From Sedimentisphaerales bacterium (GTDB lineage Bacteria; Planctomycetota; Phycisphaerae; Sedimentisphaerales; Anaerobacaceae), in contig OY970194.1 of NCBI GenBank assembly GCA_963708075.1, forward strand, positions 6,208,001 through 6,272,000: a DNA stretch of 64,000 nt, read 5' to 3'. The stretch's first letter is position 1, and every line of letters begins with the position of its first letter. The notes under the pieces were generated by a model. The model did no database searches, was not told the origin of the DNA, and saw only the letters and a list, made by a program, of their open reading frames with translations. Positions 19,482 to 59,059 of the stretch are shown piece after piece. A program made the position numbers and the translations under genes.

Positions 19482-21230
19482 TTACTGGCGTTGCTGAATC
19501 ACAAGGGTGCAACGGCCGAACTGGGTGGCGGGCTTGTCGGTGACAGCCGACGTGAAGGGCTCGGCCCACGTGTCCTTCGGCGGAATGGTCAGCTCAAAAC
19601 CACTGTTCGGATCGACGCCGACTCTCAGCTTGTAGGAAATGACGGGGATCAGGGTTCGCAGGTCCGTCCAGTACTTGCCCTCCTTGAACTCGAATTCGCC
19701 AAGCGGTACGTGCCATTGGCAGATCATCATCGTCTGGCCCGCCGACAGCTTGTCCAATGGCAGCTCGATGTTGTATGTGCCGTCGCCCGTCTTGTGGAAG
19801 GGCAGCGAGGCGAAGTCCTGGGCCGGCTGGCCGGGCCCGCCGAGCAGCACCGCCTCCAGCGGAGCCTTGGGATAAGGCAGCCGAACCGGCATGAGCGATG
19901 TGTCTTTCGGTCCCTTCATGAGCGTCAGATATGCCTTGACCTGCACCCTGCCATCCGGCAGGACGTAGCAGAAGTCATCCTGGCTCCCGACGAAATCGGG
20001 CTTGGACCATTGCTGATAGCCGGCGCTGGGCTCGAAGACGTCATCGGCCGGCAGCGGCTCGGGCAGATTCTCCCGGGCCACGTCCTCGACGCGCAGGTCC
20101 CCGTAGATCACGCGGTAGGTTGTCGATCCTTTTGGCCGGTACCAGAAGATCGCCTTGTCCGCCTCGCCGAGTTTGACGCCCTTGCCGCGATAGTACCACT
20201 TGCCCTCGCCTTTGTAGAATCGGGTGAACAGCAGGTACTGCTGCAGCTTCATGCCAAGGGCCATTTCCTCCTCGCTGGACAACTTCATCGCCTCGGTCTT
20301 CTTGGTGATGCTCGGGACCTGCTTCAGGAAGTCGTCCACGGCCACGCCATCGGGGAAATCTCCGTCGTTGAACGTCTCCGCCAACAGGCGCAATCCCTCC
20401 ACAAAGTCCGCCTCGGTCGCACTGTTCAGATCGAGCTCCACCTGTTGGAGCTTGTAGCCTTCGGGGGCGTCCATGCTGAACAGGGAATCGTCGATGGGAA
20501 CGTCGAACTGCATGTTCCGGCAGATGACGTTCAATTGGCCTTCCTTGCTCTCGATGCGGACGGGCAGGCCGGTCTTGGAATCGGCCCAGACTGTGACCTC
20601 CACCTGCGGGTGTTTTGCCAGGAACCCGACCACCTCCCGGCCGTCGATTTCCCGCGTGCCGAGGTCCTCCACCACGAAGTGCGGGCTGTCCTGGAGTCGG
20701 ACAATGGTATTCTTCAGCAATTCCAGGTAATTCGGAATCTCGGGCAAACCCTTGAGGTCGATGTACGCTGCCTCTTTCTTCTCCTCCGTCAGGGTCAGGA
20801 TGCGTTTGCTCTCCAGATCGATGATGCTGACATTTCCGGGGATGTTCGATATCGTCCGCCGAATCCGTGAGCCCACGACCATGTCGCGGATGACCGGTGA
20901 GTTTGGCTCCTCCACGCCGACAATGATATCGAAGACCGCGGAACTGGCATTGAGGATGGGTTGAATGGCTTGTGCGAAAGTCACGCTTGACCCGCCGACG
21001 AATTGCAGTCCGATCAGGACCGCCACAATGATGGCCGCCGCAACGGCCAATTTGCTCCATCTACTGTTCATGAGTATTCTCCCCAAGCTCTTGCGAGCTT
21101 GTTGTCCTTCAGTTTCCAGGATGGTCCGCCGGACGCGATCCATCGCCCGGCTTGTGGCCTCGGGCGACGGCTGCACGCCGGCGAGCAGTTCCAACCGGCG
21201 GTGGAGTTCCGCATCATTGATCTTCGACAT
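19482..21230 (-). CDS. Single-pass anti-sigma-like protein with a LolA-like periplasmic domain (pair 1)
   Basis: AAGGAGG RBS before MSKIND; overlaps the sigma stop; KLAVAAAII TM; VWADSKTGLPVRIE...FDVPIDDSLFSMDAPEGY. Confidence 0.8.
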   Translation of the reverse strand: MSKINDAELHRRLELLAGVQPSPEATSRAMDRVRRTILETEGQQARKSLGRILMNSRWSKLAVAAAIIVAVLIGLQFVGGSSVTFAQAIQPILNASSAVFDIIVGVEEPNSPVIRDMVVGSRIRRTISNIPGNVSIIDLESKRILTLTEEKKEAAYIDLKGLPEIPNYLELLKNTIVRLQDSPHFVVEDLGTREIDGREVVGFLAKHPQVEVTVWADSKTGLPVRIESKEGQLNVICRNMQFDVPIDDSLFSMDAPEGYKLQQVELDLNSATEADFVEGLRLLAETFNDGDFPDGVAVDDFLKQVPSITKKTEAMKLSSEEEMALGMKLQQYLLFTRFYKGEGKWYYRGKGVKLGEADKAIFWYRPKGSTTYRVIYGDLRVEDVARENLPEPLPADDVFEPSAGYQQWSKPDFVGSQDDFCYVLPDGRVQVKAYLTLMKGPKDTSLMPVRLPYPKAPLEAVLLGGPGQPAQDFASLPFHKTGDGTYNIELPLDKLSAGQTMMICQWHVPLGEFEFKEGKYWTDLRTLIPVISYKLRVGVDPNSGFELTIPPKDTWAEPFTSAVTDKPATQFGRCTLVIQQRQ

Positions 21231-21759
21231 GCTGAACCTCCTTTCCACCGGCCGGCGAATGATCGCATCCGAGCACGTCACGCAATGCACTCATCGCCTT
21301 GAAACACAGGGCACGAGCCTGGTGAACCGTCTTGCCGAGCTGCCCGGCGATCTCTTCGTACGAGTCCTGCTGGATATACAGCATAATGAGAACCTCGCGC
21401 GAGGCGCCGTTGAGCTGATCGATCGCAGCGAGGACCTGCTCGAGCTCCTCGGACTCCATGAGCCTGCTCAACGGTGCCGCTTCGTTTGAGGCACGTTCCG
21501 CCGCCGCATCGAGCGAGCAAGCCCGGCGGGTCGCCTGCCGGCGACGCCAGTCGAAGGCCAGATTGATGGCCGTCCGGCGGGCATAGGCATACCAGCATTC
21601 GATTCCGCCCTGGTCCCTGGCGCCATGGAGCTTGATGAACAAGTCCTGCATGAGCTCCTCGGCCACGTCCTCGCGCAAGGTGAGCCTGGCCAGCAGGGCG
21701 TGAAGTCTCGCCCCGGATGTTTCCAGCAGCTCGAGCAGTTCTGTTTGTCGTTGACTCAA
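21214..21759 (-). CDS. ECF RNA polymerase sigma factor (pair 1)
   Basis: AEELMQDLF, RRTAINLAFD, SYEEIAGQLG; AGGAG RBS before a TTG start. Confidence 0.88.
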   Translation of the reverse strand: MSQRQTELLELLETSGARLHALLARLTLREDVAEELMQDLFIKLHGARDQGGIECWYAYARRTAINLAFDWRRRQATRRACSLDAAAERASNEAAPLSRLMESEELEQVLAAIDQLNGASREVLIMLYIQQDSYEEIAGQLGKTVHQARALCFKAMSALRDVLGCDHSPAGGKEVQHVEDQ

Positions 21760-21904
21760 TCCAGGCTCCTGTTTCGACTCGTGCCTCAGCACTTCACCAT
21801 TATAGACGAGCGAGCCCCTCCCGCGCAACCGGTCCATGGGGTAGAATGATATTTTCGCCCCTACCAAGGTAGGCGTAAGCCGTTTGGCTTGAAAGGTTAA
21901 TGAT

Positions 21905-21997
21905 GGGTGGCAGCGGCAAGCGCAGCTTGCCGATGGCTCGCGGGGTGTCCCTAACACCATCGGCAAGCTCCGAAGACTCCGCTTGCCGCTGCCACCC
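21905..21997. repeat. Nested-hairpin family A, copy 4
   Basis: Lies between two divergent sigma genes. Confidence 0.9.
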
Positions 21998-22098
21998 GTC
22001 GCTCTGGGCGACAGGGCAATATTTCCGACAGGTGCAAGAGGCGTTCTCGTTCGTCTCAAGAGTGGATACGGTATCCGGGATTTGGCGACAGGACGGCA

Positions 22099-22639
22099 AT
22101 GCTGGACGATCCGATACTCCTGTGGAGATCGAAGCGGGGCGACCGCAAGGCGTTCGACCTGCTTTATGAGAGGCACCTCGACACGCTGTTGACGGTGGCG
22201 ATGAGTCTGCTGGGCAACGCCAGTGATGCGGAGGACGCCGTGCAGGCGGTGTTTGCGTGGTTCATCGAATCGCTCGACACGATCACGCTTCGCAGCAATC
22301 TCCGCAACTTCCTGGCCGTCTGCGTGGCCAACAAGAGCCGGGATATGCTCCGCAGGCGAAACAGGCCCCTCGCGAACCCCCGCGGTCCGGTCACACCTGC
22401 TGATGCTCCGGAGACGCTTGATCTGGTGGTCCACAGCGAACAAATCCATCGTCTTGTGGATGCGTTGGCCAAGCTGCCTTACGAGCAGCGGGAAGTGATC
22501 ACGCTGCACATCCACGCGGGACTGACGTTCCGGGCTATGGCGCGCGCCCTGAAGGTCTCCGCTGGGGACGGTGCAGAGCCGATATCGTTACGGCCTCAAC
22601 AATCTGAAAACGGCACTCAATGGAGAGGGCCAGACATGA
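22099..22639 (+). CDS. ECF RNA polymerase sigma factor (pair 2), frameshift near 22560
   Basis: GDRKAFDLLY, DAEDAVQ, LPYEQREVI; the region-4 end LGTVQSRYRYGL...EGQT* lies in the +1 frame and overlaps the next ATG (ATGA). Confidence 0.85.
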
Positions 22640-23865
22640 AACGAGATAAGAAGATAGAGAGTCTTGCCGCCGAGGTGCGATACAGGAGCAGCGACTGCGT
22701 CCGGACAAGGATACGTTCGCGCCTGGATGGAGTGTGGCAGCGTCACCTCTGCGAACGAGGCGGCGGGCTCGTGCGAGTTGTCTTCGGAGGACGCACAATA
22801 GCCAATCTGTCGAAAGTAACAGTCATCACTCTGTTGCTGATTGCTGCCGGCGTATGGATCATCCAGATCAACAGGTCCACAGGCCCTGCCTACGCTTTGG
22901 AGCAGACGGCCGATGCCGTCAGGGAGATCCGATACTTTCATTTCCAGTTTATCCTGCGTCCAAAGAAGCCGGCGCGGGAGGCCTGGGTTGAGTATGATGC
23001 GAACGACTCCATACGCAATGTCCGGGTCAACTTCTATGACCAGAACTCCGTCATGGTCTGGGGCGAGGACGTGACGCAGTACTGGGACCAGGACAAACGC
23101 GAGATACGGGTATTCAAGGACGATGAATATACTGAGAAAATCCTGTATTTCGTCCAGCGGCACGACCCGCGGCAGGCCATTGCGTATCTTCAGCAGCGGG
23201 CAGAGCAGAGCGGTATCCAGATCGATATCGACCAGCCACAGGCGAGCACAGACCCTGTCACGGTCACCGTCACCTACGATCCCAATACATATCTGATCGG
23301 CAAAGCGCAGCCTCACATGCGCGAGTTCTACCACATCGATCCTCTGACGAAACTGATCACCAGCGTGGATGTGGAGACATTTTCCGACGGCCGCTACATG
23401 AGCAAAGGGGCGTGGGAGTACATCGACTATAATTGGCCCTTCGATCCCAACACCTTCAATCTCAAGGCCGAGGCGGGCGCGGACGTGAACGTGTCCGACA
23501 CGACGGGCATTGCCATGGGCGTCGAGCAAGACCAACTCTCCGACGAGGAGGTCGCGATCAAGCTCGTGCGCGAGTTCCTCGATGCGTGGGCGGCAAAAGA
23601 CTACGACAAGGCCGCACAGATCCACGGTTACATGGCGATGGGTCAGGTAGAGAAGCTTGCGGAGATACTGAGCAGGAAGAGCATCCTGCAAGTGGTCTCT
23701 ATCGGGCCGCCGGTTCGTGCGGAACAACCTCTGCGTGGCCTGTTCGTGCCGTGCGAGGTGGAGTACGAAGAGAATGGACAGAAGGCCGCCATGCACCTCA
23801 GGACACACGTGAGCCGGTACTCCAAAGGCCGCTGGCTTATTCGCAATATTGGCATGGGGCCGTGA
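22636..23865 (+). CDS. Single-pass anti-sigma-like protein (pair 2), paralogous to 54967..56331
   Basis: MKRDKK start, TM, AYALEQT..A...RY.H motif, C-terminal VREFLDAWAAKDYDKA...VSIGPP...VPCEVE. Confidence 0.8.
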   Translation: MKRDKKIESLAAEVRYRSSDCVRTRIRSRLDGVWQRHLCERGGGLVRVVFGGRTIANLSKVTVITLLLIAAGVWIIQINRSTGPAYALEQTADAVREIRYFHFQFILRPKKPAREAWVEYDANDSIRNVRVNFYDQNSVMVWGEDVTQYWDQDKREIRVFKDDEYTEKILYFVQRHDPRQAIAYLQQRAEQSGIQIDIDQPQASTDPVTVTVTYDPNTYLIGKAQPHMREFYHIDPLTKLITSVDVETFSDGRYMSKGAWEYIDYNWPFDPNTFNLKAEAGADVNVSDTTGIAMGVEQDQLSDEEVAIKLVREFLDAWAAKDYDKAAQIHGYMAMGQVEKLAEILSRKSILQVVSIGPPVRAEQPLRGLFVPCEVEYEENGQKAAMHLRTHVSRYSKGRWLIRNIGMGP

Positions 23866-23877
23866 GGGAACGGAATG

Positions 23878-24339
23878 CTATAACCACCGACGGACGCGGG
23901 ACTTGTAGCGCAGGTATGGCTCGCCGAATCTCGCTTCCAGATGTCGTTCCTCTCTTCGCACTACGCTCCGGTCCATGATGAGCAGGACCGGGACCACCAA
24001 TAGCAGGACCCAGGCATTGTTGAGGAGAAATCCCGCGCCGAGGTACCAGAGTGTCAGAGCGATGTACGCCGGATTGCGCGAGAAGCGGTAGGGGCCGTCC
24101 GTAATCAGTGCCGAGGCCGGCCTATGAGGGTTGAATGGCGTGTCGGCCCGTCGAAACCGCAGGAGGACCGGTGGCATGATCGCTACACCCACCGCAATCA
24201 AGGCCGCGCCGACAACGCCGCCCCATGGCCCCGGCAAAAGCCGGATCGGCCACCAGTGATTCAGTCCAACCCCAACCAACAGCGCCGCCACGTATATCAC
24301 CGGCGGATGAATACGTATACCCGGTCCTTCACGCTTCAT
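23878..24339 (-). CDS. Isoprenylcysteine carboxyl methyltransferase/PEMT family membrane protein
   Basis: LITDGPYRFSRNPAY, REERHLEARFGEPYLRYKSRVRRWL. Confidence 0.92.
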   Translation of the reverse strand: MKREGPGIRIHPPVIYVAALLVGVGLNHWWPIRLLPGPWGGVVGAALIAVGVAIMPPVLLRFRRADTPFNPHRPASALITDGPYRFSRNPAYIALTLWYLGAGFLLNNAWVLLLVVPVLLIMDRSVVRREERHLEARFGEPYLRYKSRVRRWL

Positions 24340-24445
24340 GTGTCGCTCTCATGAGCTAATCCTGCCACCTTCTCCTTACTGATCGTACACAGGGTCGATT
24401 GTAGCGACGTTCCAACTGGAGTGCTATTGAGAAGGCGCATAGAAG

Positions 24446-24471
24446 AGCCGGGCGCGAGGGGGGGCCCGGCT
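24446..24471 (-). terminator. Putative intrinsic terminator
   Basis: AGCCGGGC/GCCCGGCT stem downstream of the 24501 stop. Confidence 0.5.
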
Positions 24472-24500
24472 TTGCGTTGTTGCTTGACAGGAATCGTGGT

Positions 24501-25824
24501 CTACTTCGGCAGGTCCTCCGACCTGGCATCCGCGACGTGCAGGTCCGCGTAGATGACCCGCCAGGTGGCCGAGCCTTGGGGCTGGTACCAGAAGATCGGC
24601 GTGGCTGGATCGCCGAAGGGGACGTTCTGGCCCGCGTAGCGCCAGGTGCCTGCCGGCAGGACGGTGATGAAAGCCAGCCCGCGGTACATCACCTGCTGGG
24701 AACCGAAGTCCCAGCCGGGCTTGAACTTGCCTCCCTGAGCCATCTGCACGACTACCTTGGCGATCTCCGGTCCAGCCACCATTGGCGGAAATGTCCCATC
24801 CACCGTCCACTGTGACCAGGCGCAGGAACTCGGTGAAGTCCCGCTCGCCGATATCGGCGGCGTCTGCCCGGATCTCGATAGGGACATACCCCGCCGGCGG
24901 TTCGAGGCTGAAGAACGAATCCTCCAAATCGACGTCAAGCTGAAAGTCGCTCATGATCACATTCATCCCCGGCGCGCTGGGAACCTCCAGCTCCACTCGT
25001 ACCGGCCGGCCGCTCCCCGGGTCGATCCATACCGTCGTCACGGTATCCGCCTCACGGACGCGGAAGCCGTCGAGCATCCGCCCGTCCACCTCTCTGCTCC
25101 CCAGTTCCTCATCGGCTTGCGCCGGCAGGGCCCGAAGCGTCTCGATCATCGCCCACGGGTCCTTGGCGGGGTCGTCCGGCACATTCTCCATGTCGAACTT
25201 TGCGTAGTTCTTCGCTACCGGAACAATGCCGATCCCTTTGACCTTGTTGCCGATGGCCTGTGCCACGGTGATGTAGCCGTCGGCAGTGGCCGTTCGGATG
25301 AAGCGCGTGCCCCCCATCTCCTTGAAGGCGACGTCCATGCGTACCGTGGGCATGTTCTCCATGCCTGTCTTTGTGACCATGCTGTAGGTCAGAGTCTGCG
25401 CCTTGTGCAACTGGCTGACCGCGCGGGCGTAGACCTTGCCGGCGCTGTCGCCTGGGAAGAGGTTGAGGCCTACAGTCGCGGCTAGAACCACCCCGGCCGC
25501 GACAGCTAATTTCGTCATTTGACTGCTCATGATCGTTCTCCAAAATATCGCCGCAGAGGATTCGAGCCCGCGGCGCGATTGATCTTCACCTTGCGATTTC
25601 GCAGCCAGCAGAACCTTGCGGTTCGCCGACTCCACGGTGTGCTTCTCATCCGGGACGGCGCTCATGCGATCGGCACAGTCGAGCAGCGACTGGAGCCGCT
25701 TGACGGCTTGCCTGCATGACTCGCACTCCCGGATGTGTGCTTCTATCTCACCAGCCTTCTCGGAAGGCAACTCAGCGAGCACGAACTGAACAAGCTGTTC
25801 ATTGGTCACATTGTGAGGACTCAT
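24501..25824 (-). CDS. zf-HC2 anti-sigma factor with a LolA-like domain (pair 3), frameshift near 24820
   Basis: HIRECESC, KLAVAAGVV TM, VWIDPGSGRPVRVE; C-terminus WRYAGQNV...WRVIYADL in ORF 24501..24938. Confidence 0.82.
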
Positions 25825-25836
25825 CGCTTACCTTCT

Positions 25837-26331
25837 TCATTGGTCCAGGTACTCGTGCAACTCGCGGGCCAGCCTGGCCAGTGCCCGGTGCAGATGAACG
25901 CGAACGGTGGACTCGGTACAGCCCATGATCCTGGCGACTTCGGACGTCTCCAGCCGTTCCAGCCGCAACAGGATAAATGCATCTGCCTCCCGTCGGGGCA
26001 GCCGGTCGAGGGCGGCAGCCAATCGCTGCTGCAACTCGTCAGCCACCAACGCATCCTCAGGCCCGTTCGTAGTGACGCCGTCAGGCGTTTGTTCCGGACC
26101 ACGGACGATCCGCCGACGAGCCAACTCAAGGGCCTTGCGAACAGTGGCCCGGTACAGGTACGCCGGCCAGTTCACCTGTCCGTTGTACTTGTGCCAGCGA
26201 CGCCAGATGGACAGGAAGACCTCCTGATGCACATCGTGTGCCAGATTCGCGTCGCGCAGGACGCGAGTCGCTGTGCGGAGGACCGATCCGCCGTGCTCGT
26301 TCACCAGGTTTTCAAAGCTCTGATCCGACAC
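25837..26331 (-). CDS. ECF RNA polymerase sigma factor (pair 3), close paralog of 56900..57397
   Basis: DVHQEVFLSIWRRW, LPRREADAF, STVRVHLHRA; GTG start inferred by alignment with the paralog. Confidence 0.9.
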   Translation of the reverse strand: MSDQSFENLVNEHGGSVLRTATRVLRDANLAHDVHQEVFLSIWRRWHKYNGQVNWPAYLYRATVRKALELARRRIVRGPEQTPDGVTTNGPEDALVADELQQRLAAALDRLPRREADAFILLRLERLETSEVARIMGCTESTVRVHLHRALARLARELHEYLDQ

Positions 26332-26440
26332 TGTCATACTTTCCGGCAACAAAAACGTTTCCAGGCCAAGGCCCGGCTGCATGCAGCTTGAGATCTCTGC
26401 CCTTATAGAGGGCCTCGCCCACCCCCGCGTTTACAGGAAA
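26331..26440 (-). promoter_or_regulatory. Conserved promoter/leader shared with 56796-56902
   Basis: GTAAAC-N17-CCTCTATA...CAGAGATCTC...TGCAGCCGGGCCTTG...GGAAAG. Confidence 0.65.
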
Positions 26441-26502
26441 TCCCGGCCCGCGAAATTGGCTTTGTTTCGCAGGATCGGCCAAAGGATTGCCGGTCGTCTG
26501 GA

Positions 26503-27498
26503 TCATTCGGGCTTCAGATCTGTCGGTTTCTCAGCCAACGTGTCCTGCAGCTTCTTGAGGATCTCGGGCGAGGGAACGTTGCGGTCCTGCATCACCAGGT
26601 CGGCAAAATTGTCGGCGAGGATTTCTTCGGGATGAATGATATATTGCGTGTTTCTACCCACCTGCTCGAAGAAGCCGGTCACTCCCTGGACATCGACAAG
26701 TCGGGGCTGCTGCCCCACGTACAGAGGCTTTGTGTTGGGCGAATCGCTCCGGTGGTCCACCAGCAGTAGCTGGAACTGCATATAGCGGAAGAACTCGCCG
26801 CCGCGGCTGACGTCATATTTCTCCGCTCGTGAGAAGAGGATGGGGACGGCCCAGACATCTGCTTCGGCCTCCCGCACGCGGATGCAATGATCGTTCGCGG
26901 GGGCGTCGGGATTGGTCAGCTTGCGGCTCCGGAGCGTCTCGGGGAACTCGATTTCGGCGCACCTCGCGAAGCCGATCGCCTGGTACAGCCGGTCCCGCAA
27001 ACCGGGATTGCTTCGGGAGAGAATGTGAAAAAGCTCGTGGGAAATGAGCTTGGGATCCAATGCCCGGCTCTGCGTCAGTTCACGTTTCGGCAAGATCAGG
27101 GCATGGCCGCGCGTGTACGGCACGTTGCCTTCTTCCTTGCCTGTGGTCTTGACCACATAGATCACCTTGGGCCATGGCAGGGCCAGCCGGTCCAGGGGCG
27201 CTTTGAGCCGGTCGAGGGCCGGGGCGAGGGATGCTTTGTCCGCGTCGGTCCAGTCGAGCACATTCTGCCCGACGAACTCCAGGAACGCTTCTTCGGAAAC
27301 GTCAGCATCGGTCTTCATACGGGCGGCACGATCGAAGGGGCTGAGCGCCCGGATGAAGTCGTCGCGGGTGGTCAGGATCTTCCTGCCCTCGTCCGCTGTT
27401 GCGAAGGTGACGATGGTGCCACCGCTGAGCCTGGTCTGAGCCTGGCAGGCTCCAACCGCCGTCAAGGCAAGCCCGCACATCATGAGTGACCTGTTCAT
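26503..27498 (-). CDS. Exported protein with an HExxH zincin-like motif
   Basis: Signal peptide; LISHELFHILSR; distal HPEEILADNF. Confidence 0.75.
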   Translation of the reverse strand: MNRSLMMCGLALTAVGACQAQTRLSGGTIVTFATADEGRKILTTRDDFIRALSPFDRAARMKTDADVSEEAFLEFVGQNVLDWTDADKASLAPALDRLKAPLDRLALPWPKVIYVVKTTGKEEGNVPYTRGHALILPKRELTQSRALDPKLISHELFHILSRSNPGLRDRLYQAIGFARCAEIEFPETLRSRKLTNPDAPANDHCIRVREAEADVWAVPILFSRAEKYDVSRGGEFFRYMQFQLLLVDHRSDSPNTKPLYVGQQPRLVDVQGVTGFFEQVGRNTQYIIHPEEILADNFADLVMQDRNVPSPEILKKLQDTLAEKPTDLKPE

Positions 27499-27677
27499 AT
27501 GTTTACCCCGACAGAATTCCCTCTGCCGGCGAAGGCATGACCGTACCGTTCCCTTCGCGGCTCAGCACGTTACAGACATAACCCCTATCAAAGAAAGACC
27601 TTCGCGTCAAGGCTATTGGGAGACAGCCTACCTGATGGGTGCACGACAGGATTGTGGCAGAGCAAACATGAGGCTGT

Positions 27678-27766
27678 GGGTGGCAGCGTCAAGCGCAGCT
27701 TGGCGATGGCGTTCCTGGAATGCGGCGCAACCATCGCCCAGGCCATCGGCCTTGACGCTGCCACCC
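27678..27766. repeat. Nested-hairpin family A, copy 5 (covariant subtype)
   Basis: GCAGCGTCAAG...CTTGACGCTGC. Confidence 0.85.
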
Positions 27767-27912
27767 GGCTCTCAGGCTATTTTCGCAGACACTATCGGAC
27801 CTGAACGGTAACAAGCAGGATATCAGCGGAAGTTGCACTCGATACGTAACGAGGGTGCCTCTCTCCGCTGGTGATGAGAAAAACTTGAAATAATCGAAGT
27901 GCACGCCCGACT

Positions 27913-27933
27913 AATAGTACGAATCGTACTATT
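27913..27933. promoter_or_regulatory. Perfect inverted repeat, probable PadR operator
   Basis: AATAGTACGA-A-TCGTACTATT, 12 bp upstream of the PadR start. Confidence 0.7.
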
Positions 27934-27945
27934 GGAGATCGCGAA

Positions 27946-28497: not shown

Positions 28498-28511
28498 AGG
28501 CAGTGGATTTT

Positions 28512-28586
28512 GTAGGATGGGCTTCAGCCCATGCTGTGTTTGTCCCTCATAACAGAATTGTCCGCATGGGCTAACGCCCATCCTAC
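28512..28586. repeat. GTAG REP doublet
   Basis: GTAGGATGGGCTTCAGCCCATGC ... GCATGGGCTAACGCCCATCCTAC. Confidence 0.8.
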
Positions 28587-28610
28587 GAGTCACAGAGCGA
28601 AGGAGTAACC

Positions 28611-29537: not shown

Positions 29538-29560
29538 AGAACCACTTTTGATTTGGAGGT

Positions 29561-30535: not shown

Positions 30536-30541
30536 ACGTCC

Positions 30542-30582: not shown

Positions 30583-30596
30583 GGAGTCAGATAGTC

Positions 30597-33056: not shown

Positions 33057-33129
33057 TGCGTGTGTGTCTCATAATTTGATTCTCCGCAAATGAGTGGTTT
33101 GGACCCGCGACCGGGTCAATAATCAATTA

Positions 33130-34668
33130 TCAATTATCCCTAATCGATCTGAGGGTCCGGCCATAGACTTCCACCTCGATGTAGTGATTCAGATCGTCGC
33201 TCGTGTTGCCGTTGCTGTAGAGCCTGACGTAGCGGCCCTGCACGCCCTTGCAGTCGATGAGCTTGCCCTCGTTCGTTTCCGTATAGTGCAGGTCCGTGCC
33301 GGCGCCGAGGCCGAGGGAGTTGTCACGATCGTTGTTGAAGACGGTCTCCACGCCGGCCCGGAAGCTCTTATCGTCGGAAATCTGGGCGACCACGTCGAAG
33401 TACACGCGCGGCAGCTCGTGGTAGTGCCAGGCGATGATCGCGTAGATCTCGCATCGTTCGCGCAGATCGATCGTGACGTATTGCGGCTTTGGGCCAAGCT
33501 CGATGAGGCTGCCGTCATCGGCCTCCTTGTCGCCATCGGTGATCATGTCCGGGCTGCCGTAGAGCGGATCGCGGTCGCTGGCGGAGACGGGCTTGCCGGC
33601 CGCGACATTCGTGGTTCCAGGCGGGGCCAGGAACGGCGGTCGAGGCCGGCCGCGGGGCCGCTCCAGGTTCGGCGTCCGCGCATCCTGCGGCGTGCCGACG
33701 AATTGCGGCTTGGGCAGCTTGATCTGCAGCGGAACCAGCTTCGGGTCGCTCGCAGGCGTCGGCGCGGGCGTGGGGATTGCCGCTGGCTCGTCGCTTGGCG
33801 TGCCCACAGGCTGCTGCCTGCGGTCGATCACGCGGGCCGTGGTGGGTACGCCGAGATCGAACATGCTGGCGGGCCCCGATTGCGGATAATCGATTGCCCA
33901 TTCCTCGCGACCCAGCGTGCTGCCATCCTGGCCTCGATACTCGACACTCGCCGCGATGACCCGCTTCGTTGCCGGATCGGCCATCATGGCGATCTTGACG
34001 CGAGCGGCCGGACGGCCGCTCAGATTGAGACCCGCAGCGGTGGTTTCGATCTCATACGCCCGCACGGACTTGCCCTCCTGCTCGGCGGTCCACGTGGTCA
34101 TCTCCACATCGTCCTTCGCCGCGAACACGGCGAATGCATCGATGAGGTTGTACGTCGACTCGGGCCCGAAAGGAGACACAGACGCCAGCTCCGAAACCAA
34201 TACGGTCTTGACGCGGGGGCTGTAGACGAATTGCTCGCGTCCCGCTCCGTAGTCCCAGCCGAGCATGCTGCCGTCATCCATCACCACATAGGTCTTCTGT
34301 GCTGCAAAGTTGTACCAGTGCTGCGTGGTACGCCCATCGGTGTTCTGGTAACCCCTGACGGCGGCGTGCATCCACGGCATTTTCGTGGTGGCCAGCCGAA
34401 CCTGGTCGAAGGTCATCGGACCGCCGTCGCTGAGCAACGCCCAAGCTCCTATTGTTGCTGCGATGAGAACCGTCGCTGCGACAGCGAGCTTCTTCAAATT
34501 CGAAATCTGAAATCTGAAATTTGAAATTCCGCCCCGGGCGGTTCGGGCAGTCTGTTCGTAGGTCTGAAGCATCTGCCGTCGCAGCCGCTCGCGATGGGCG
34601 GGGTCCGGCTCGGCGTCGATCTTCAAGCCGGACACAAGTTTTCGAAAATTGTGCTCATTCTGAACCAT
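33130..34668 (-). CDS. Anti-sigma-like single-pass protein with a C-terminal discoidin-like domain (pair 4)
   Basis: PDPAHRERLRRQML N-terminus, KLAVAA TM, TAATG coupling to the sigma gene. Confidence 0.82.
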   Translation of the reverse strand: MVQNEHNFRKLVSGLKIDAEPDPAHRERLRRQMLQTYEQTARTARGGISNFRFQISNLKKLAVAATVLIAATIGAWALLSDGGPMTFDQVRLATTKMPWMHAAVRGYQNTDGRTTQHWYNFAAQKTYVVMDDGSMLGWDYGAGREQFVYSPRVKTVLVSELASVSPFGPESTYNLIDAFAVFAAKDDVEMTTWTAEQEGKSVRAYEIETTAAGLNLSGRPAARVKIAMMADPATKRVIAASVEYRGQDGSTLGREEWAIDYPQSGPASMFDLGVPTTARVIDRRQQPVGTPSDEPAAIPTPAPTPASDPKLVPLQIKLPKPQFVGTPQDARTPNLERPRGRPRPPFLAPPGTTNVAAGKPVSASDRDPLYGSPDMITDGDKEADDGSLIELGPKPQYVTIDLRERCEIYAIIAWHYHELPRVYFDVVAQISDDKSFRAGVETVFNNDRDNSLGLGAGTDLHYTETNEGKLIDCKGVQGRYVRLYSNGNTSDDLNHYIEVEVYGRTLRSIRDN

Positions 34669-49355: not shown

Positions 49356-49358
49356 CCC

Positions 49359-50858: not shown

Positions 50859-50869
50859 GAGACACGCCG

Positions 50870-51988: not shown

Positions 51989-52026
51989 GAACCGCACGGG
52001 ACCACCCCTGTCAAGGTGACAAACTT

Positions 52027-52120
52027 GGGTGGCAGCGGCAAGCGGAGTCTTCGGAGCTTGCCGATGGCATTGATGCAGATCCCACGAGCCATCGGCAAGC
52101 TGCGCTTGCCGCTGCCACCC
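52027..52120. repeat. Nested-hairpin family A, copy 7
   Basis: Arms and 3' flank ATCATAAGTCTTGAATGCATAA shared with copy 1. Confidence 0.9.
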
Positions 52121-52181
52121 ATCATAAGTCTTGAATGCATAATAGCTTACACCCACCTTGACAGCGGTGGACGCATGGGAC

Positions 52182-53378
52182 CTATGTCTGTACGCGGAGC
52201 GAGTGGTACTGTGCGATTACCTGCTGTCCGAAGTCACTGGCTGGGTCAATGCCTGATACTTGTCTAAGCGTCTCCTCCACGCCTGTCTGCCGGATCATGG
52301 TTTGCAGACGCACGGCATGGGGATCGTCGGGGCATTCATAGCACAGGGCGGCGGCGCAGATCGTGGCGATGTGGTCGGGCGCGACACCCTGGGACCGGCA
52401 TAGCTCTGCGGCCCCGATGATGCGATCATCCCGGCCGAGCTTTCGGATCGGGTCCCTGGCGACCCTCGTGATGGCGTCCTTCAGGAGCGGGTTGCCGAAA
52501 CGCACGCGGACGTCCTTGCGAATCACCATGTGCTCGCGCCGATCGAGATCGGCCGGGTAGCGCCGCAGCAGTGCCTCTGTTGTCTTATCGAGGGCCCCAT
52601 CGAAGACCGACCGCACGAAATCATCGTCGAATGTCTCGTGGATATAGGTATGGCCTCTCAGATACCCGAGATAGGCCAGGCCGGCATGAGCGACGTTGTG
52701 TGTGAAGATTTTGCGTTCCACCTCGGCCTTGAAATTGCTCACCGGATGGAAGCCCTGGACGGCGGGTCTGCCGGCACGAGTGGCTTTGCCGTCGTAAGGG
52801 ACATCGCGATGCGTGTCCGCGACAACCAGGAGCGGATCATCCTCCGGCGACCGCACCCCGGAACCACCCACGATTCCTGCGAAGCTCGTGCCCACGAAGC
52901 CGACATTGTCCTGTGCCCATGTCCTCGCGGGACCGTCAAGCAGGCTGATCACCTTTTGTGAGAGCATCGCCGCGGCGCCGAGCATGTTCTCGCAGAGGTA
53001 TACGTCGAGCGGTCCCGCCTTGCGTTCGAATCGGCAACGGATGCCCATCGCCAGCAACGGTGAAACGGCGTGCAGATTGACCATGCCCACAGCGGTGGCG
53101 ACAATCCGGGCATTTGCGATTGCCTCTGCGATCGCTGCTTCCTGGCTCGTGTGCAGAGTCTTGAAACCGCTGACGATCAGTTCGCGGACACTCCTGGAGT
53201 ACGGGTCCAGCAGGCGCAGCGGATAGCTGCCACGCCTGTTGAGCTGTTCCACGAGGAACGTGTTGGCGCGGATGAAGACGGTATCAAAACCGTTTTCTTG
53301 AAAGAGTTGGCCCATGAGCCCGCGGCCGATATTGCCCGCCCCAAATTGAACTGCCAAGTTGCCGTTATTGCTCTTCAT
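52182..53378 (-). CDS. mtlD: Mannitol-1-phosphate 5-dehydrogenase family protein
   Basis: AVQFGAGNIGRG, TAVG, LCEN, ERKIFTHN, RFGNPLLKD...RVARDPIRKL. Confidence 0.85.
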   Translation of the reverse strand: MKSNNGNLAVQFGAGNIGRGLMGQLFQENGFDTVFIRANTFLVEQLNRRGSYPLRLLDPYSRSVRELIVSGFKTLHTSQEAAIAEAIANARIVATAVGMVNLHAVSPLLAMGIRCRFERKAGPLDVYLCENMLGAAAMLSQKVISLLDGPARTWAQDNVGFVGTSFAGIVGGSGVRSPEDDPLLVVADTHRDVPYDGKATRAGRPAVQGFHPVSNFKAEVERKIFTHNVAHAGLAYLGYLRGHTYIHETFDDDFVRSVFDGALDKTTEALLRRYPADLDRREHMVIRKDVRVRFGNPLLKDAITRVARDPIRKLGRDDRIIGAAELCRSQGVAPDHIATICAAALCYECPDDPHAVRLQTMIRQTGVEETLRQVSGIDPASDFGQQVIAQYHSLRVQT

Positions 53379-53472
53379 TGAAGGCGCGATTATATCACGG
53401 CCTGCTCATATCACCAGCCTCAGCCGCAATCCGTATGAGAGATGGTTGACGGAAGATGAACGGGCCGGGAGA

Positions 53473-53970
53473 ATGTCGCGGCAGATGCAGGATCAGAAGA
53501 AGAATGTCAGCATATACACGGATGGCGGCTGCCTGGGCAACCCCGGACCGGGGGGCTATGGCGTTGTGCTGCGCTATGGCGAGCATGAGAAACGCCTCAG
53601 CGGCGGGTTTCGGCAGACTACGAATAACCGTATGGAGATCATGGGGGCCATCGCGGGCCTGGAGGCCCTCAAGAGTCCCTGCTCGGTCACGTTGTACAGC
53701 GACTCCAAGTACCTGGTCGATGCGATGCGCCTCGGCTGGGTGCAGCGGTGGAAGGCGAACGGGTGGCGCCGGAACAAGAAGGACAAGGCCGTCAACGTGG
53801 ACCTGTGGGAGCGGCTATTGGAGGCATGCGAACGTCACGCCGTGTCCTTCGTCTGGATTGAGGGCCACGCCGGCCATCAGTGGAACGAAGTATGCGATGT
53901 CCTGTCGAAACAAGCCGCCGCCGGCCGGGACTTGCCAATCGACGAAGGCTACGAACATCTCCTGCCCTGA
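53473..53970 (+). CDS. rnhA: Ribonuclease HI
   Basis: IYTDGGCLGNPGPGG, TTNNRME, SDSKY, NVDLW, GHAGHQWNEVCD. Confidence 0.96.
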   Translation: MSRQMQDQKKNVSIYTDGGCLGNPGPGGYGVVLRYGEHEKRLSGGFRQTTNNRMEIMGAIAGLEALKSPCSVTLYSDSKYLVDAMRLGWVQRWKANGWRRNKKDKAVNVDLWERLLEACERHAVSFVWIEGHAGHQWNEVCDVLSKQAAAGRDLPIDEGYEHLLP

Positions 53971-54089
53971 CGGCCTCGTACGTGTTTCGCGTGGGGCCTC
54001 CCATTCGCGGCGTTCATTGCCGACAGTCCAATCTCAAGGACTTGAGACGTTGCCAAACTCGTTGGGTTCGTCCCAAGTTGTTGAGTTTT

Positions 54090-54170
54090 GGGTGGCAGCG
54101 TCAAGCGCAGCTTGGCGATGGTCTTGCCCATTCGCCATCGCCAAGGCCTTCGGCCTTGACGATGCCACCC
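54090..54170. repeat. Family A, copy 8 (covariant subtype), bracketed by a direct repeat
   Basis: ATCTCAAGGA.TTG.GACG..GCCAAACTCGTT near 54031 and 54196. Confidence 0.8.
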
Positions 54171-54433
54171 GACTGCGCAGCTTGCACAGGCTCGATCTCA
54201 AGGATTTGGGACGAAGCCAAACTCGTTTGACGATGCTGTCTCGATGGGCCGTGCCAGCCAAGATCATGCCTTCCTGGGCGAAACACGTATACTGTCTCTG
54301 ATAGTCAGGGCATCCGCATCACCACTCGCCCTTGCGCAAATTCTTCTTCCTCCTCTCATTTTTTGTCGCAAGATAGCTCGTGGCGGCACTATATAACGAG
54401 AACGGTAATCTTGAGAGTATGGTGAGGTGTCGA

Positions 54434-54970
54434 ATGGAAAATGATGCTTACTATGTGGAGCGCTGCCTGGATGGCCACCCGGATGATTTCCGCCACCTTG
54501 TCCGGCGGTATCAGCCGGTCCTGCTGGCCCATCTGGCGGGCAAGCTGGGCAGCCGGGACAGTGCCGAAGAGGCCGCCCAGGAAACCCTCGTGCGAGCCTA
54601 CTTCAAAATGAGCAATCTGAAGAAGCCCGAGTCCTTCTTCGCCTGGCTGCTCGGGATCGCCGATCACGTGGCGATGGAGCAGCGACGAAAAGAGCTGATC
54701 CGCCGCAAGCGCGAGTCCGTCCGCGCATTCTGTGAAGAGGCGCCGACACCGGAACTCTCCCAGGATTACGCTCTCGAAGCGGCGGTGGCTGGCCTGCCCG
54801 AGGCGTATCGGACTGTGGTCCTGTTGCGGTATTACGGCGGACTATCGTGCAACGGGATCGCCGAACAGCTCGATATGCCTCTGGGCACGGTCACGAAGAC
54901 GCTATCACGGGCCTACACCTTGCTGCGTGAAAACCTGCAGCAGGGACAGACAGTAAACGAGGTGCAATGA
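54434..54970 (+). CDS. ECF RNA polymerase sigma factor (pair 5)
   Basis: AEEAAQETLVRAY, FFAWLLGIA, LPEAYR, PLGTVTKTLSRA. Confidence 0.92.
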   Translation: MENDAYYVERCLDGHPDDFRHLVRRYQPVLLAHLAGKLGSRDSAEEAAQETLVRAYFKMSNLKKPESFFAWLLGIADHVAMEQRRKELIRRKRESVRAFCEEAPTPELSQDYALEAAVAGLPEAYRTVVLLRYYGGLSCNGIAEQLDMPLGTVTKTLSRAYTLLRENLQQGQTVNEVQ

Positions 54971-56331
54971 TGAACTGCGCAGAATGCAAAGAACTGTTGG
55001 TGGTGCACCTGGAAGGATTGCTCGAAGAATCTCAGGAGCAGGCGGTCCTGGAGCACCTGGGCAAGTGTGAGATGTGCCGGGCGGAGTTGGCGGGGCTGCA
55101 GACCCTACAACAGCGTCTGGTCAACAACGGCAAGGCGCTGGCCCAAAGCGACCTTGAAGACAATGTCATGAACCGAATCATTCGCGAACAGAATGCCAGG
55201 CTCAAGGCGGCCGATCAGGCCTCGGCGGGCCTTCGCATCAGGAGATTGATTATGAAAAGTCCAATCACGAAGTTAGCCATAGCCGCGGCGGTCATCGTTG
55301 TCGCCGCTGTATCCCTTCAATTCCTCGGGGGCGGGCCCGCGGCCTACGCTCTCGAGCAGACAATCAACGCCAATCACAGCGTCCGTTACCTTCACATCAA
55401 GATCCCCAACGCGCAGCCTGAGAACGAGCCGAAAGAACTTTGGATCGCATGCGATGAGAACGGGCAGGTCCAGAGTGTCCGGTTCCAGTCGCCGGAATGG
55501 GCCAGCCCGGAGGACGGCGCCAAGTGGGTGGTGTGGAATCAAGGCATCGCCAAGATCTGGTTCAAACGCAAGAACAGCTTCCTGATCTGCCGGGATGAGA
55601 CGGTACAGAAGTGGATCCTGGATCTGGTGCGCAGCAGCGATCCCCGATACGCCGTCGAGCGTCTCAGCGAGCAGGAGAAGCAGGGCAAGCTGACGCTGGA
55701 TATCCAGCAGCCGAGCGATAAGAGCCAGCCGATCATTATCACGGCGACCTATGTCTCGGACGGCAAGTCGTCCGGCCGGCAAGCGGTCTTTCATGTAGAC
55801 CAGGCCACCAAGCTTGTCACCATCATCGAGTACTACCGCCAGGGGTCCGACGGCCAGTTGACCTTCACCGCCCGGCAGGAGAATTACGACTACAATGTCC
55901 CGATTGCCTCCGAGATGTTCGTCCTCGACGATGAGGTGCCTGCCGGTGCGACGCGCGTCGATCAAGTCAGCCAGGATGTGGGCTTGGCGCAGGGGACTAT
56001 GACGGACGAGCAGGCGGTCGTGGAGACTGTCCGGCAGTTCTTCGAGGCGCTGAAGGCCCGTGATTACGACAAAGCCGGCATGCTGTTGGGAGGGATGCCG
56101 GCCCCGAAGATGGAGGAGTTGTTTGGCGGCATGAAGATCGTAGGAATCGTGTCGATCGGCGAGCCGAAGCCGCAGCCGATTCCCGGTGTCGGCGGGTTTG
56201 TCGTCCCGTGCAAGGTTGAGGTGGAGAATGCCGATGGCAGCAAATCGACCAGGGAATTCCCCGCGGTTGCTGTCCGGCCGGTGGACCGGAACCTGCAGGC
56301 CGACCGGTGGAACATCCACGGCGGCATCTAA
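54967..56331 (+). CDS. zf-HC2 anti-sigma factor with a large periplasmic region (pair 5)
   Basis: MNCAEC...HLGKCEMC, KLAIAAAV TM, AYALEQT; ATGA coupling. Confidence 0.88.
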   Translation: MMNCAECKELLVVHLEGLLEESQEQAVLEHLGKCEMCRAELAGLQTLQQRLVNNGKALAQSDLEDNVMNRIIREQNARLKAADQASAGLRIRRLIMKSPITKLAIAAAVIVVAAVSLQFLGGGPAAYALEQTINANHSVRYLHIKIPNAQPENEPKELWIACDENGQVQSVRFQSPEWASPEDGAKWVVWNQGIAKIWFKRKNSFLICRDETVQKWILDLVRSSDPRYAVERLSEQEKQGKLTLDIQQPSDKSQPIIITATYVSDGKSSGRQAVFHVDQATKLVTIIEYYRQGSDGQLTFTARQENYDYNVPIASEMFVLDDEVPAGATRVDQVSQDVGLAQGTMTDEQAVVETVRQFFEALKARDYDKAGMLLGGMPAPKMEELFGGMKIVGIVSIGEPKPQPIPGVGGFVVPCKVEVENADGSKSTREFPAVAVRPVDRNLQADRWNIHGGI

Positions 56332-56365
56332 CCCAGCACGAATTCTTCACCAATCTGGAAACGAA

Positions 56366-56397
56366 CAAAGGCCAGGCGAGCGGATGCCTGGCCTTTG
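56366..56397 (+). terminator. Putative intrinsic terminator
   Basis: CAAAGGCCAGGC/GCCTGGCCTTTG 12-bp stem. Confidence 0.6.
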
Positions 56398-56500
56398 CCA
56401 TGCGCCCCGTGTTTGACTGATTCTCGTGGGCCGATTTCATTTGCCATGCCGAGTCGCCGCGTCGCTGCCCGGCTGGTGTCGGGAAGAAACGGGGCGGTTT

Positions 56501-56579
56501 GGGTGCCATGCTTACGCTCGCGTAAGCATGCCTTGCCCATCGGGTGGAACATGTCTACGCAAGCGTAGACATGGCACCC
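56501..56579. repeat. Double-hairpin family B, copy 3
   Basis: GGGTGCCATG...CATGGCACCC. Confidence 0.85.
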
Positions 56580-56899
56580 GCCAGTTGGTTTCTTAGGAGC
56601 GAAGCGCAGCGTAATCGAGACATCTGATACCGCAAACGGCGCATTATTCAATCTCAGCCAGATCCCTCGACCGCGCTCGAGACGGCGGATAAAGGCCTGC
56701 TTCGCTGCAAGGTGTAGTCGCACGCCGGGTGGCGGAGCCCGGTCTTTTTGCTGCGCGGGGAGGGTTGCCATGGGTAGAATGCAAAAAAATCGGTTTTTCC
56801 GTTAATGGGGGCGAAATGCAGCCCTCTATAGCCTCAGAGATCTCTGCGGCTGCAGCCGAGCCTTGATTCAAGGAATCGTGTTCGTAAGGAAAGCAACGA

Positions 56900-57397
56900 G
56901 TGTCTGATGCGCGGTTTGAAGAGCTGGTGAATGCTCACGGCCGGGACGTGCTGAACGTCGCCCTGCGGGTCCTCGGCGACCCGGAGACGGCAAAGGACGT
57001 CTACCAGGAGGTCTTTCTGGCCATCTGGCGGCGGTGGCACACCTACAATGGCGCAGTGAATTGGGGTCCGTATCTCTATCGCGTGACCGTCCGCAAGGCG
57101 CTGGAATTGGCCAGGGCACGTGGGCCGGTGGCCGAGGCCCCGGAGGGCTGTGAGCCTGAAAGCCCGGCCTCGGACCCCGATACGAGCCTGAGACTCCAGG
57201 ACCTTCAAACCAAGCTGACGGCGTCTTTGGCGAAGCTGCCGAAGCGACAGGCCAACGTGTTTGTCCTTTCGAGGATCGAAGGCCTGGACCATTCGGCGAT
57301 AGCGGAAACCCTGAGCTGCTCGCAGGACAGCGTTCGCGTGTTGTTGCACCGGGCGGTGAAGCAGTTGGCGCATGAGATGAGCGAGTACCTGAGATAA
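56900..57397 (+). CDS. ECF RNA polymerase sigma factor (pair 6)
   Basis: DVYQEVFLAIWRRW, LPKRQANVF, SVRVLLHRA. Confidence 0.92.
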   Translation: MSDARFEELVNAHGRDVLNVALRVLGDPETAKDVYQEVFLAIWRRWHTYNGAVNWGPYLYRVTVRKALELARARGPVAEAPEGCEPESPASDPDTSLRLQDLQTKLTASLAKLPKRQANVFVLSRIEGLDHSAIAETLSCSQDSVRVLLHRAVKQLAHEMSEYLR

Positions 57398-57412
57398 CTA
57401 CGGCGGTGACTT

Positions 57413-59059
57413 ATGGCTAACCATGAGCATATGAAAGATCAACTCGTGAGCTTCGTGCTCGGTGAACTATCTGAGCAGCAGCGGTCGCAGGTGACCGCAC
57501 ACGTAGCCGAGTGCGGCGAATGTCGCGCGGAGCTGAAGCAGCTTGAGCAGTTGCTGCAATGTGCCGGGCGGCGAAAAGACCTCTCGGCGGACGAATCGCT
57601 GCTGGAGTCGGCCAGGAATGACCTTATGGCGGCGGCGAGCAGCGAACAATCAAGGATCATCGCTCGGCCGGACTTGGGCCGGGCTTTTGAATGGAGAAGA
57701 ATCATGGCAAGCCCAATCATGAAAATGGCCGTGGCGGCGGTTGTTGCCGTTGCGGCGGGACTCTTTGGCGTATCGAAACTCGGCGATCATAAGCTCCCCG
57801 TACGCTTGCGGCTTCTGGCGATAGCCGTTGCGAACGAGGAAAATCTCTTCAAAGGAACAGAGATCATCCACATCCAGAACGAGATCATCGTGGAGCCCGC
57901 TGGTGTTGCGCCGAGTCTCCCCTACGCCTGGCTGCCGATGATGTCGGTGAAACCCGATGGCAGCCTGCGGTTCAACCAACTGAAAATGAACCTTGCGCCG
58001 GAATCGTACGTCGTGACGGATCACTCCTGGTATGACCCGGTGACGGGCCGATTCACCAGGGTGATGAAAGCGGGGGACAGTGTGGTTTTCGCCAACTCCT
58101 ATGACGGCCGCTTCATCTACGATGCGAATGTGACGCCCGATGGTATAACCCAGGTCGGCAAGCAGGCTCTGGCCGCCGGTTTCAAGCCGCCGCAGAGCCC
58201 CACCGAGTACCTCGGGCTGGCCGCCGGCCTGAAAACCGATCTGGCGAAGGATAACTCCATGGTGCAGAAGGTGGAGGAAAGCACTCTCGCCGACGGCGAG
58301 CCGGCTCATGTCTTCACCGTGGGCATGCCCGATCCGAATGGGCAACTGCAAGGCTATTTCCTGTTCAAGGTTCGTGACAAAGATTCGACGATTGCCGAGA
58401 AAGAGTTCGTGCTCCTGGGACGGACGATGTTAGTCATCCGCCGGGTTCTGACCGAGCCGGTGGAGGCGCCGGGAGTCTCCTGGAATCTCGCGGAGATCGA
58501 AGGAACCGCTACGACGAGCGAGAAGGTATCGGTAACGCGGGACATGATCGTGCAGAACGTCTCGATCCAGCACATGGTGGACCGTGCCAAGTTCGAGACC
58601 TACGTCTTCTCGGTCAAGCCCGCGTGGACCGGCGCGATCGAGATCACCGATTGCATCGACCCTGCGAGCATGGGCGGGCGAATGTTCATCATGACCGCTC
58701 GCGCCGATGATGGCCGGCACCTGGTCCTGGTCCAGTCTCCGACGTACAACATGATGATGGGTCGGGTCGTCAAGGCCGGCCAGGTGGTCTATACCTCCGC
58801 GAACGGCTTCAAGGTCTGGGGCGGCGGGCCGCAGAAGTGGTTCTCACAGATTCTGCTCCAAAGCGCCCAGGCCAGCATCAAGGACCCGCCGTCCGAGGAT
58901 CGCATCGGCTATATCCTGGAGTCACCCGCAGGGACATTCCCCGCGTTGGCAATCAACGGTCCGGTCAGCGATGAGGAACTCCACACGCTGGTCGATAGCC
59001 TCATGCCTGCGAAGGACTACCTCAAGGCCGGCCAGGCGACGGATTCGAGCAAGAAGTAA
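57413..59059 (+). CDS. zf-HC2 anti-sigma factor (pair 6)
   Basis: HVAECGEC, KMAVAAVV TM, large periplasmic region. Confidence 0.87.
   Translation: MANHEHMKDQLVSFVLGELSEQQRSQVTAHVAECGECRAELKQLEQLLQCAGRRKDLSADESLLESARNDLMAAASSEQSRIIARPDLGRAFEWRRIMASPIMKMAVAAVVAVAAGLFGVSKLGDHKLPVRLRLLAIAVANEENLFKGTEIIHIQNEIIVEPAGVAPSLPYAWLPMMSVKPDGSLRFNQLKMNLAPESYVVTDHSWYDPVTGRFTRVMKAGDSVVFANSYDGRFIYDANVTPDGITQVGKQALAAGFKPPQSPTEYLGLAAGLKTDLAKDNSMVQKVEESTLADGEPAHVFTVGMPDPNGQLQGYFLFKVRDKDSTIAEKEFVLLGRTMLVIRRVLTEPVEAPGVSWNLAEIEGTATTSEKVSVTRDMIVQNVSIQHMVDRAKFETYVFSVKPAWTGAIEITDCIDPASMGGRMFIMTARADDGRHLVLVQSPTYNMMMGRVVKAGQVVYTSANGFKVWGGGPQKWFSQILLQSAQASIKDPPSEDRIGYILESPAGTFPALAINGPVSDEELHTLVDSLMPAKDYLKAGQATDSSKK

Follow-up and report, generated by a model that had tools for sequence, protein, structure and literature searches.

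Can one anti-sigma factor gene give rise to two proteins? The question is raised by a 64,000-nucleotide stretch of DNA from a Sedimentisphaerales bacterium (contig OY970194.1, positions 6,208,001 to 6,272,000; hereafter the window), whose genome consists of one contig of 7.5 Mb with a GC content of 60%. Six extracytoplasmic function (ECF) sigma factor genes are found in the window, and directly downstream of each lies a single-pass membrane gene, coupled to the sigma gene and encoding one membrane helix. ECF anti-sigma factors are viewed as the one protein of one gene, while helpers such as RseB are encoded by separate genes. In four of the six membrane genes (genes 1 to 4) an in-frame ATG, led by a Shine-Dalgarno (SD) motif, is located just before the membrane helix. 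From its sequence context this ATG very probably serves as an internal start and, because the ribosome-binding site and the ATG are conserved in frame before the helix, each gene likely makes two proteins.

A sequence-only reading of the window had placed GGAG seven nucleotides ahead of such an ATG (GGAG-N7-ATG) in four genes. All four sites were found exactly as claimed, with the ATG in frame at 21071 and 25530 on the minus strand (genes 1 and 2) and at 55252 and 57704 on the plus strand (genes 3 and 4). The ATG lies six codons upstream of the K in the K(L/M)A(V/I)AA helix in all four genes, and GGAG spans a codon boundary, with two bases from the end of codon -4 and two from the beginning of codon -3 (GGG, TGG, AGG and TGG, respectively, followed by AGA). 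An in-frame start codon with an SD motif at normal spacing is thus present within an intact longer open reading frame (ORF), and the 3' end of the 16S rRNA carries the standard anti-SD. That the SD motif rests on a rare arginine codon was confirmed, AGA being used for just 8 of the 106 arginines in the four genes (gene 2 taken to position 24800). Since AGG yields GGAG too, what the motif needs is an NGG codon at -4 followed by an AGN codon at -3. For the other two pairs, the tandem repeat reported at the expected site of pair 4 is real (7-nt unit, 4.7 copies, 34496-34528), whereas the decayed site proposed for pair 2 held in part: GGAGGACGCACAATA is present, but there is no ATG, the arginine is CGC and the register is one base off, so that decay is plausible at most.

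Within the genome the site was far from a common feature of internal methionines. Over 3,124 long ORFs, GGAG-N7 stood ahead of 98 of the 30,544 internal Met codons (0.3%, family members counted in), and 241 of 1,964 W-R dipeptides were written with AGA or AGG. Before a membrane helix, GGAG-N7-ATG or -GTG was detected in 23 of 61 sigma-adjacent membrane genes, compared with 3 of 1,467 control helices, which were those at least 200 codons inside a gene. A protein profile built solely from residues downstream of the Met retrieved 23 members in the genome, every one beside a sigma gene; the site was present in 21 of them, and in 17 of 19 after removal of the four seeds. The arginine at -3 was encoded by AGA or AGG in 20 of 21 cases, as against 83 of 419 elsewhere in the same genes, and AGA makes up 6% of the arginine codons genome-wide. 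When the same peptides were resampled with synonymous codons 1.8 of 20 sites were expected and all 20 were seen, these 20 having been preselected for the site. An AT-rich genome background was ruled out as the cause by the within-gene controls.

The residues behind the motif varied. GGAG at 7 nt was given by W-R, R-R, G-R, G-S, R-S or W-S, and GGAG in a shifted register (6 or 8 nt) by L-E, W-E, G-E or G-G. A protein-level preference for W-R was ruled out, as the residue at -4 may be W, R or G, which have little in common chemically but almost always share an NGG codon, and -3 may also be Ser (AGT or AGC). The constraint is on the RNA and not on the residues, with the nucleotides conserved beyond the need of the protein. 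Homogenisation among paralogues was not supported in this genome: the helix is saturated at synonymous positions, which are identical in 290 of 907 pairs where chance would give 337, and despite this Arg -3 is AGA or AGG in 18 of 18 in-register site-bearing members. A conserved RNA hairpin was likewise rejected, as the consensus fold of 70 representatives from -30 to +63 contained zero pairs; Rfam gave no match in the window. The alanine run at codons +8 to +11 often forms a GCCGC-N-GCGGC palindrome about 25-35 nt past the ATG, beyond the initiating ribosome. This palindrome is weak and unexplained, and it was not recovered as a consensus structure.

The surroundings of the site were compared with those of real starts. 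Among 374 confident gene starts the commonest spacer after GGAG was 7 nt. Folded from -20 to +20, the site had a mean energy of -5.1, compared with -5.8 for real starts and -9.3 for internal Met codons. In 16 of 20 cases it was folded more weakly than its own synonymous versions. The fraction of codons +1 to +6 ending in A or T was 0.58 at the site, 0.46 at real starts and 0.22 at control internal Met codons. The site therefore resembles a real start in its spacer, its weak folding and its A/T-rich codons.

The same pattern was observed in relatives. A first order-wide pattern, in which any MGN codon was permitted after Trp, gave 74 matches in 49 of 151 genomes of the order, with 70 AGA, 3 AGG, 1 AGT and no CGN; use of CGN at the background rate, which the sequence-only reading had named as evidence against itself, was thus not found. 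Neighbours not selected by the pattern, in 40 stretches around such matches, had ATG in 25 of 27 cases and GGAG-N7 in 20 of 27. The species collection was then scanned with a pattern omitting both SD and Met. At least 129 loci were obtained, of which one was too near a contig end and 32 of the other 128 had no sigma gene in the flank (unrelated matches, short flanks or broken-off contigs), leaving 96 sigma-adjacent relatives among the matches listed, to which all counts on this set refer. ATG was present in 85, GGAG-N7 in 72 and GGAG at 4-11 nt in 80. Arg -3 was AGA or AGG in 71 of 74, compared with 470 of 1,290 arginines elsewhere in the same genes, so that both the Met and the codon were conserved in a set picked without the site. 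The 58 unselected members less than 40% identical in the periplasmic part gave similar values (ATG 51, GGAG-N7 43, AGA or AGG 40 of 41). Losses of ATG and GGAG tended to coincide (75/10/5/6 for both, ATG only, GGAG only and neither; p 0.0024, with kin not independent), and p-values are overstated in general, as the sets of relatives overlap in genomes and kin.

At the protein level 150 proteins were considered. The motif was not matched in 52 of them, and in 7 the gene call began at the internal Met; a Met lay 3-9 residues ahead of the lysine in 83 of the 91 long representatives with the motif. The internal Met is the gene-called start in 10 of 120 database homologues of gene 1, and the source labels of its close homologues are Sedimentisphaerales, Phycisphaerae or Planctomycetes. 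The profile matches 5,233 clusters at 50% identity (E up to 1e-10), with the site readable only where the DNA is in hand. Outside the order 294 genomes gave no match to the strict DNA motif. The profile search, which is more sensitive there, gave matches in 11 of 250 genomes searched, and nine homologues were sigma-adjacent. Six of these nine had an SD-like motif and ATG before the helix, formed from other residues and in three cases as exact GGAG-N7; the remaining three had no such motif with ATG.

The long form is retained as well. In all 96 relatives at least 55 open codons precede the site, and in most of the 23 members of the genome an SD-led ATG is found at or near the sigma stop; the long form of gene 1 starts behind its own strong SD, overlapping the sigma stop. 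The N-terminal heads, 53-98 residues in the window genes, are of two sorts, a zinc-finger anti-sigma domain or a short head of about 50 residues with weak anti-sigma matches only, and head type tracked sigma clade in 4 of 4 loci compared. The zf-HC2 domain was above the cut-off in two of the four genes, under it in gene 3 and absent in gene 1. NCBIfam anti-sigma matches were obtained for all four, all under the cut-off and for gene 1 far below (E 0.004). The head is presumed to bind and inhibit the cognate sigma factor. Split or stand-alone full short-form genes were found neither among the 23 members nor among the 96 relatives. One member (L035; 9660-10773, minus strand; one of 73 matches in the 40 stretches) has GGAG-N7-ATG preceded by only 23 open codons, and it was not counted as sigma-adjacent; either its head is frameshifted or it is a genuine head-less gene.

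The short form had been claimed to begin with a Sec-like sequence, and its N-terminus agreed with this. It has a basic region, M-K/N-S-x-x-x-K, then an 18-residue hydrophobic helix, a Gly/Ser/Thr linker and, at short-form residues 32-39, [AVTSCIL]-[FWYL]-A (here called A-x-A) in 71 of 85 members, as against 86 of 1,165 control windows; a predicted LolA/RseB-like fold follows. The short forms of genes 1 and 3 were modelled with a pLDDT of 89.9 and 86.2, confidently so outside the signal region. Their best structural matches were LolA, LprG/LppX and RseB/MucB, the closest being 4mxt (Z 12.4, rmsd 4.8, 172 aligned) and LprG (Z 12.2); RseB was the top Foldseek match of the gene 3 model and had Z 7.7 for gene 1. 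Identity to the LolA/LprG/LppX matches was 9-16%, and a sequence search of the PDB returned nothing significant. Whole-length alignment to RseB structures gave an rmsd of about 16, with the C-terminal domain aligned only as part of the whole model. Profile comparison showed the subfamilies of genes 1 and 3 to be homologous (probability 99%); the periplasmic part of gene 4 was dissimilar to the other three by BLAST and may be different from them. The first residues of mature LolA chains aligned at about model residue 30, beside the A-x-A. Because the fold sets in there and mature LolA chains start there, the short form is laid out like a preprotein of the LolA family, so that the long form, on the models, would be a LolA-like protein with an anti-sigma head in front.

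We propose the following mechanism. The full-length product would be a membrane protein whose head presumably holds the ECF sigma factor, and the internal start would give a shorter, exported LolA/RseB-like lipid-binding protein, export being expected from the established features of a Sec signal. The helix would serve as an ordinary signal peptide in the short form, which signal peptidase I would cut to free a soluble periplasmic protein, and as the anchor in the long form. The long form may be cut at or near the A-x-A and then within the membrane, freeing the sigma factor in the manner of RsiV. The free copy would bind the same envelope lipid or lipoprotein as the tethered one and could thereby set the threshold and feedback of sigma release, damping the response with no additional sigma trapped. 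The release step, the ligand and the role are drawn by analogy from RseB (PMC8103513) and RsiV (PMC6066255). Given initiation, release of the short form as a soluble protein is probable, and the buffer role is the least certain part. The sequences support the two-product reading. Our best explanation as a whole, and a moderately probable one, is a membrane anti-sigma to which an RseB-like sensor is fused, together with an exported copy of the sensor that has its own start.

Several observations weigh against this explanation. The SD is modest (-6.4 in most members), and 7 nt is a weak mode at real starts, with 22 cases compared with 18, 17 and 16 for other spacers. The site is missing from 38 of the 61 sigma-adjacent membrane genes, two of them in the window, and is therefore dispensable or family-specific. 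Among the relatives 24 of 96 have no GGAG-N7 and 11 no ATG, and five keep GGAG without ATG. Their third-position bias extends to codon +13, so part of the conservation could be shared ancestry. Regarding export, the A-x-A lies about ten residues beyond the helix, resulting in a long signal of 32-39 residues, and in gene 4 no clear A-x-A stands where it usually does. The fold matches cover one domain, with a TM-score by query of at most 0.35, and do not indicate the ligand.

The main rival accepts initiation, but has the short form stay anchored in the membrane without a head, either as a partner that pairs with the full-length anti-sigma or as a protease decoy that shields it, like an RseB tethered next to its RseA. 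All initiation evidence fits this equally. The A-x-A-type motif is lacking in 14 of 85 members, the long form would have to withstand constitutive cleavage at the identical sequence, and the helix following the A-x-A is amphipathic (moment 0.41 vs 0.27), a type of helix that blocks signal peptidase in RsiV (PMC6066255). However, in the alignment this helix falls on the first one of mature LolA chains, so that its amphipathy is accounted for by the fold, and the motif is placed where the LolA preprotein is cut. We regard permanent anchoring as unlikely, though it deserves to be taken seriously.

Two further explanations fit poorly. The site could be the relic of a small anti-sigma gene fused to a secreted LolA-like gene, kept through shared ancestry or paralogue recombination, with an incidental short product. 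The short form does resemble a complete stand-alone gene and many third positions around the site are biased in relatives. The cassette is also paired with sigma factors of at least five separate clades in a quick tree, compatible with one origin or several, and this co-occurrence suggests cassette shuffling. Such a history is nevertheless improbable, as arginine -3 is AGA or AGG in 18 of 18 members in register (20 of 21 overall) where helix synonymous positions are saturated, homologues of other orders with different DNA likewise have SD and ATG, and the separate short-form gene is found nowhere in the genome or the listed relatives. Alternatively, GGAG could be an elongation pause that aids membrane targeting or co-translational sigma binding, the Met being a protein-level preference. 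In E. coli, SD-like pauses are over-represented near the beginning of genes for membrane proteins (PMC4359368), and the five relatives with GGAG and no ATG would suit a pause. Those pauses lie at codons 16-36, however, whereas the site is at codon 47-98, and in the accessible text no enrichment was found for proteins whose first helix is preceded by 80 or more residues (PMC4359368). A pause needs neither an ATG at a fixed 7 nt nor A/T-rich unstructured codons downstream, and the motif is almost absent at the control helices; we consider it quite improbable. Very improbable is a separate transcript, from an internal promoter or processed mRNA, which would make the site the primary start of a gene within the gene: over a stretch of about 20 codons ahead of the site, codons ending in A or T are more frequent, but no promoter-like motif was seen by eye in the base profile from -22 to +14, and two proteins per gene would result in any case.

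In-frame internal starts as such are established, for ArcB-C (bioRxiv 10.1101/520783) and for CheA-S, SpaO-S and CcmM35 (PMC13515050), and an isoform of the sigma factor sigma-R from an earlier start is known (PMC7826278). As in E. coli ArcB-C, a start codon with an SD-like motif, placed between two domains of a signalling gene, is conserved across species and would yield an N-terminally truncated product. ArcB-C, though, is a cytosolic output domain shown experimentally, while the short form here is a predicted exported input domain with its own signal sequence, and the site recurs in more than 20 paralogues of one genome. With RseA-RseB and MucA-MucB (PMC8103513; 2p4b, 2v42, 6jau) the genes share a membrane anti-sigma and a LolA-like-fold periplasmic protein in the same operon, and the N-terminal LolA-like domain of RseB/MucB is present in the predicted models of genes 1 and 3. 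RseB is encoded by a separate gene, in contrast to the LolA-like domain here, which is fused to the anti-sigma and whose free copy would come from the same gene. The short form may work in an RseB-like way; it was not assigned to RseB/MucB, owing to the fused head and the lack of any Pfam MucB/RseB match in 56 family members. In B. subtilis RsiV (PMC6066255) the membrane helix of the anti-sigma is followed by a signal-peptidase-type site and an amphipathic helix, and here by a candidate site of this type and a helix of this kind. RsiV is a lysozyme sensor, unlike the LolA-like sensor fold predicted here; DUF4179 (RsiV-type) matched in only 1 of 56 members, weakly (E 0.008), and the term 'start codon' is absent from PMC6066255. 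The carriers LolA, LprG and LppX share the preprotein layout and are the best structural matches, but the proteins here have an additional C-terminal domain and the fused anti-sigma head. In the accessible full-text literature searched, with most subscription journals outside its scope, we found no anti-sigma factor with a second start; in-frame internal initiation is known, and its use in anti-sigma genes to give a sensor copy was not found there.

Coordinates of the sigma/anti-sigma loci are given below.

Features of the sigma/anti-sigma loci in the window, numbered from its first nucleotide
Feature	Positions	Strand
ECF sigma factor, pair 1	21214..21759	minus
Gene 1 long form, 582 aa: 53-aa head, membrane helix, periplasmic part	19482..21230	minus
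Gene 1 predicted short form, 529 aa, MNSRWSKLAV...	19482..21071	minus
Gene 1 internal SD core GGAG, G-R = GGG AGA; ATG 21071	21079..21082	minus
Gene 1 candidate signal peptidase I site T-F-A, short-form residues 31-33	20973..20981	minus
Gene 1 predicted LolA/LprG/RseB-like domain, short-form residues 28-213	20433..20990	minus
ECF sigma factor upstream of gene 2	25837..26382	minus
Gene 2 long form: zf-HC2 head above cut-off, helix, DUF2092; tail frameshifted near 24800	24424..25824	minus
Gene 2 internal GGAG, W-R = TGG AGA; ATG 25530	25538..25541	minus
ECF sigma factor upstream of gene 3	54380..54970	plus
Gene 3 long form, 453 aa, zinc-finger-like head under cut-off	54970..56331	plus
Gene 3 predicted short form, 359 aa, predicted RseB/LolA-like fold	55252-56331	plus
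Gene 3 candidate A-Y-A site	55342-55350	plus
Gene 3 internal GGAG, R-R = AGG AGA; ATG 55252	55241..55244	plus
ECF sigma factor upstream of gene 4	56900..57397	plus
Gene 4 long form, 548 aa, zf-HC2 head	57413..59059	plus
Gene 4 predicted short form, 451 aa	57704-59059	plus
Gene 4 internal GGAG, W-R = TGG AGA; ATG 57704	57693..57696	plus
Pair 2 anti-sigma-like gene without internal ATG; possible decayed site 22786-22800	22636..23865	plus
Pair 4 anti-sigma-like gene; 7-nt tandem repeat 34496-34528 on expected site	33130..34668	minus

Immediately downstream of gene 1 an S41 (tail-specific-type) peptidase with an Ig-like domain is encoded (17815-19164, minus), a candidate periplasmic protease for the gene 1 circuit. 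The sigma/anti-sigma fusion at 22099-23865 (plus) is only apparent: a one-base frameshift lies near 22550-22560, and the sigma C-terminus continues in another frame and ends across the ATG at 22636. The frameshift is either an assembly error or a recent mutation. Gene 2 goes out of frame at about 24800 (minus), and its conserved C-terminal domain resumes in another frame to about 24500; since a paralogue elsewhere in the genome is broken likewise, long-read indel errors are suggested. Short tandem repeats of 7 and 9 nt are plentiful in the window and mostly intergenic (6153-6502, 9969-10267, 14984-15879, 33116-33138 and 34496-34528). More arrays of the same sigma/anti-sigma family are located on the contig at about 1,883,000-1,898,000, 5,686,000-5,709,000 and 6,363,000-6,375,000.

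Tentatively, and at somewhat less than even confidence, each of these genes may be a one-gene RseA/RseB, in which the ratio of the two start sites sets the thresholds of at least 20 ECF circuits per genome, Planctomycetota-wide and perhaps in other phyla. A single synonymous change from AGA to CGC would abolish the site and leave the long protein unaltered. If the proposal is true, annotation overlooks a second product in a very large family, and a headless sensor from a second start would be a translational dial in a major class of bacterial signalling.

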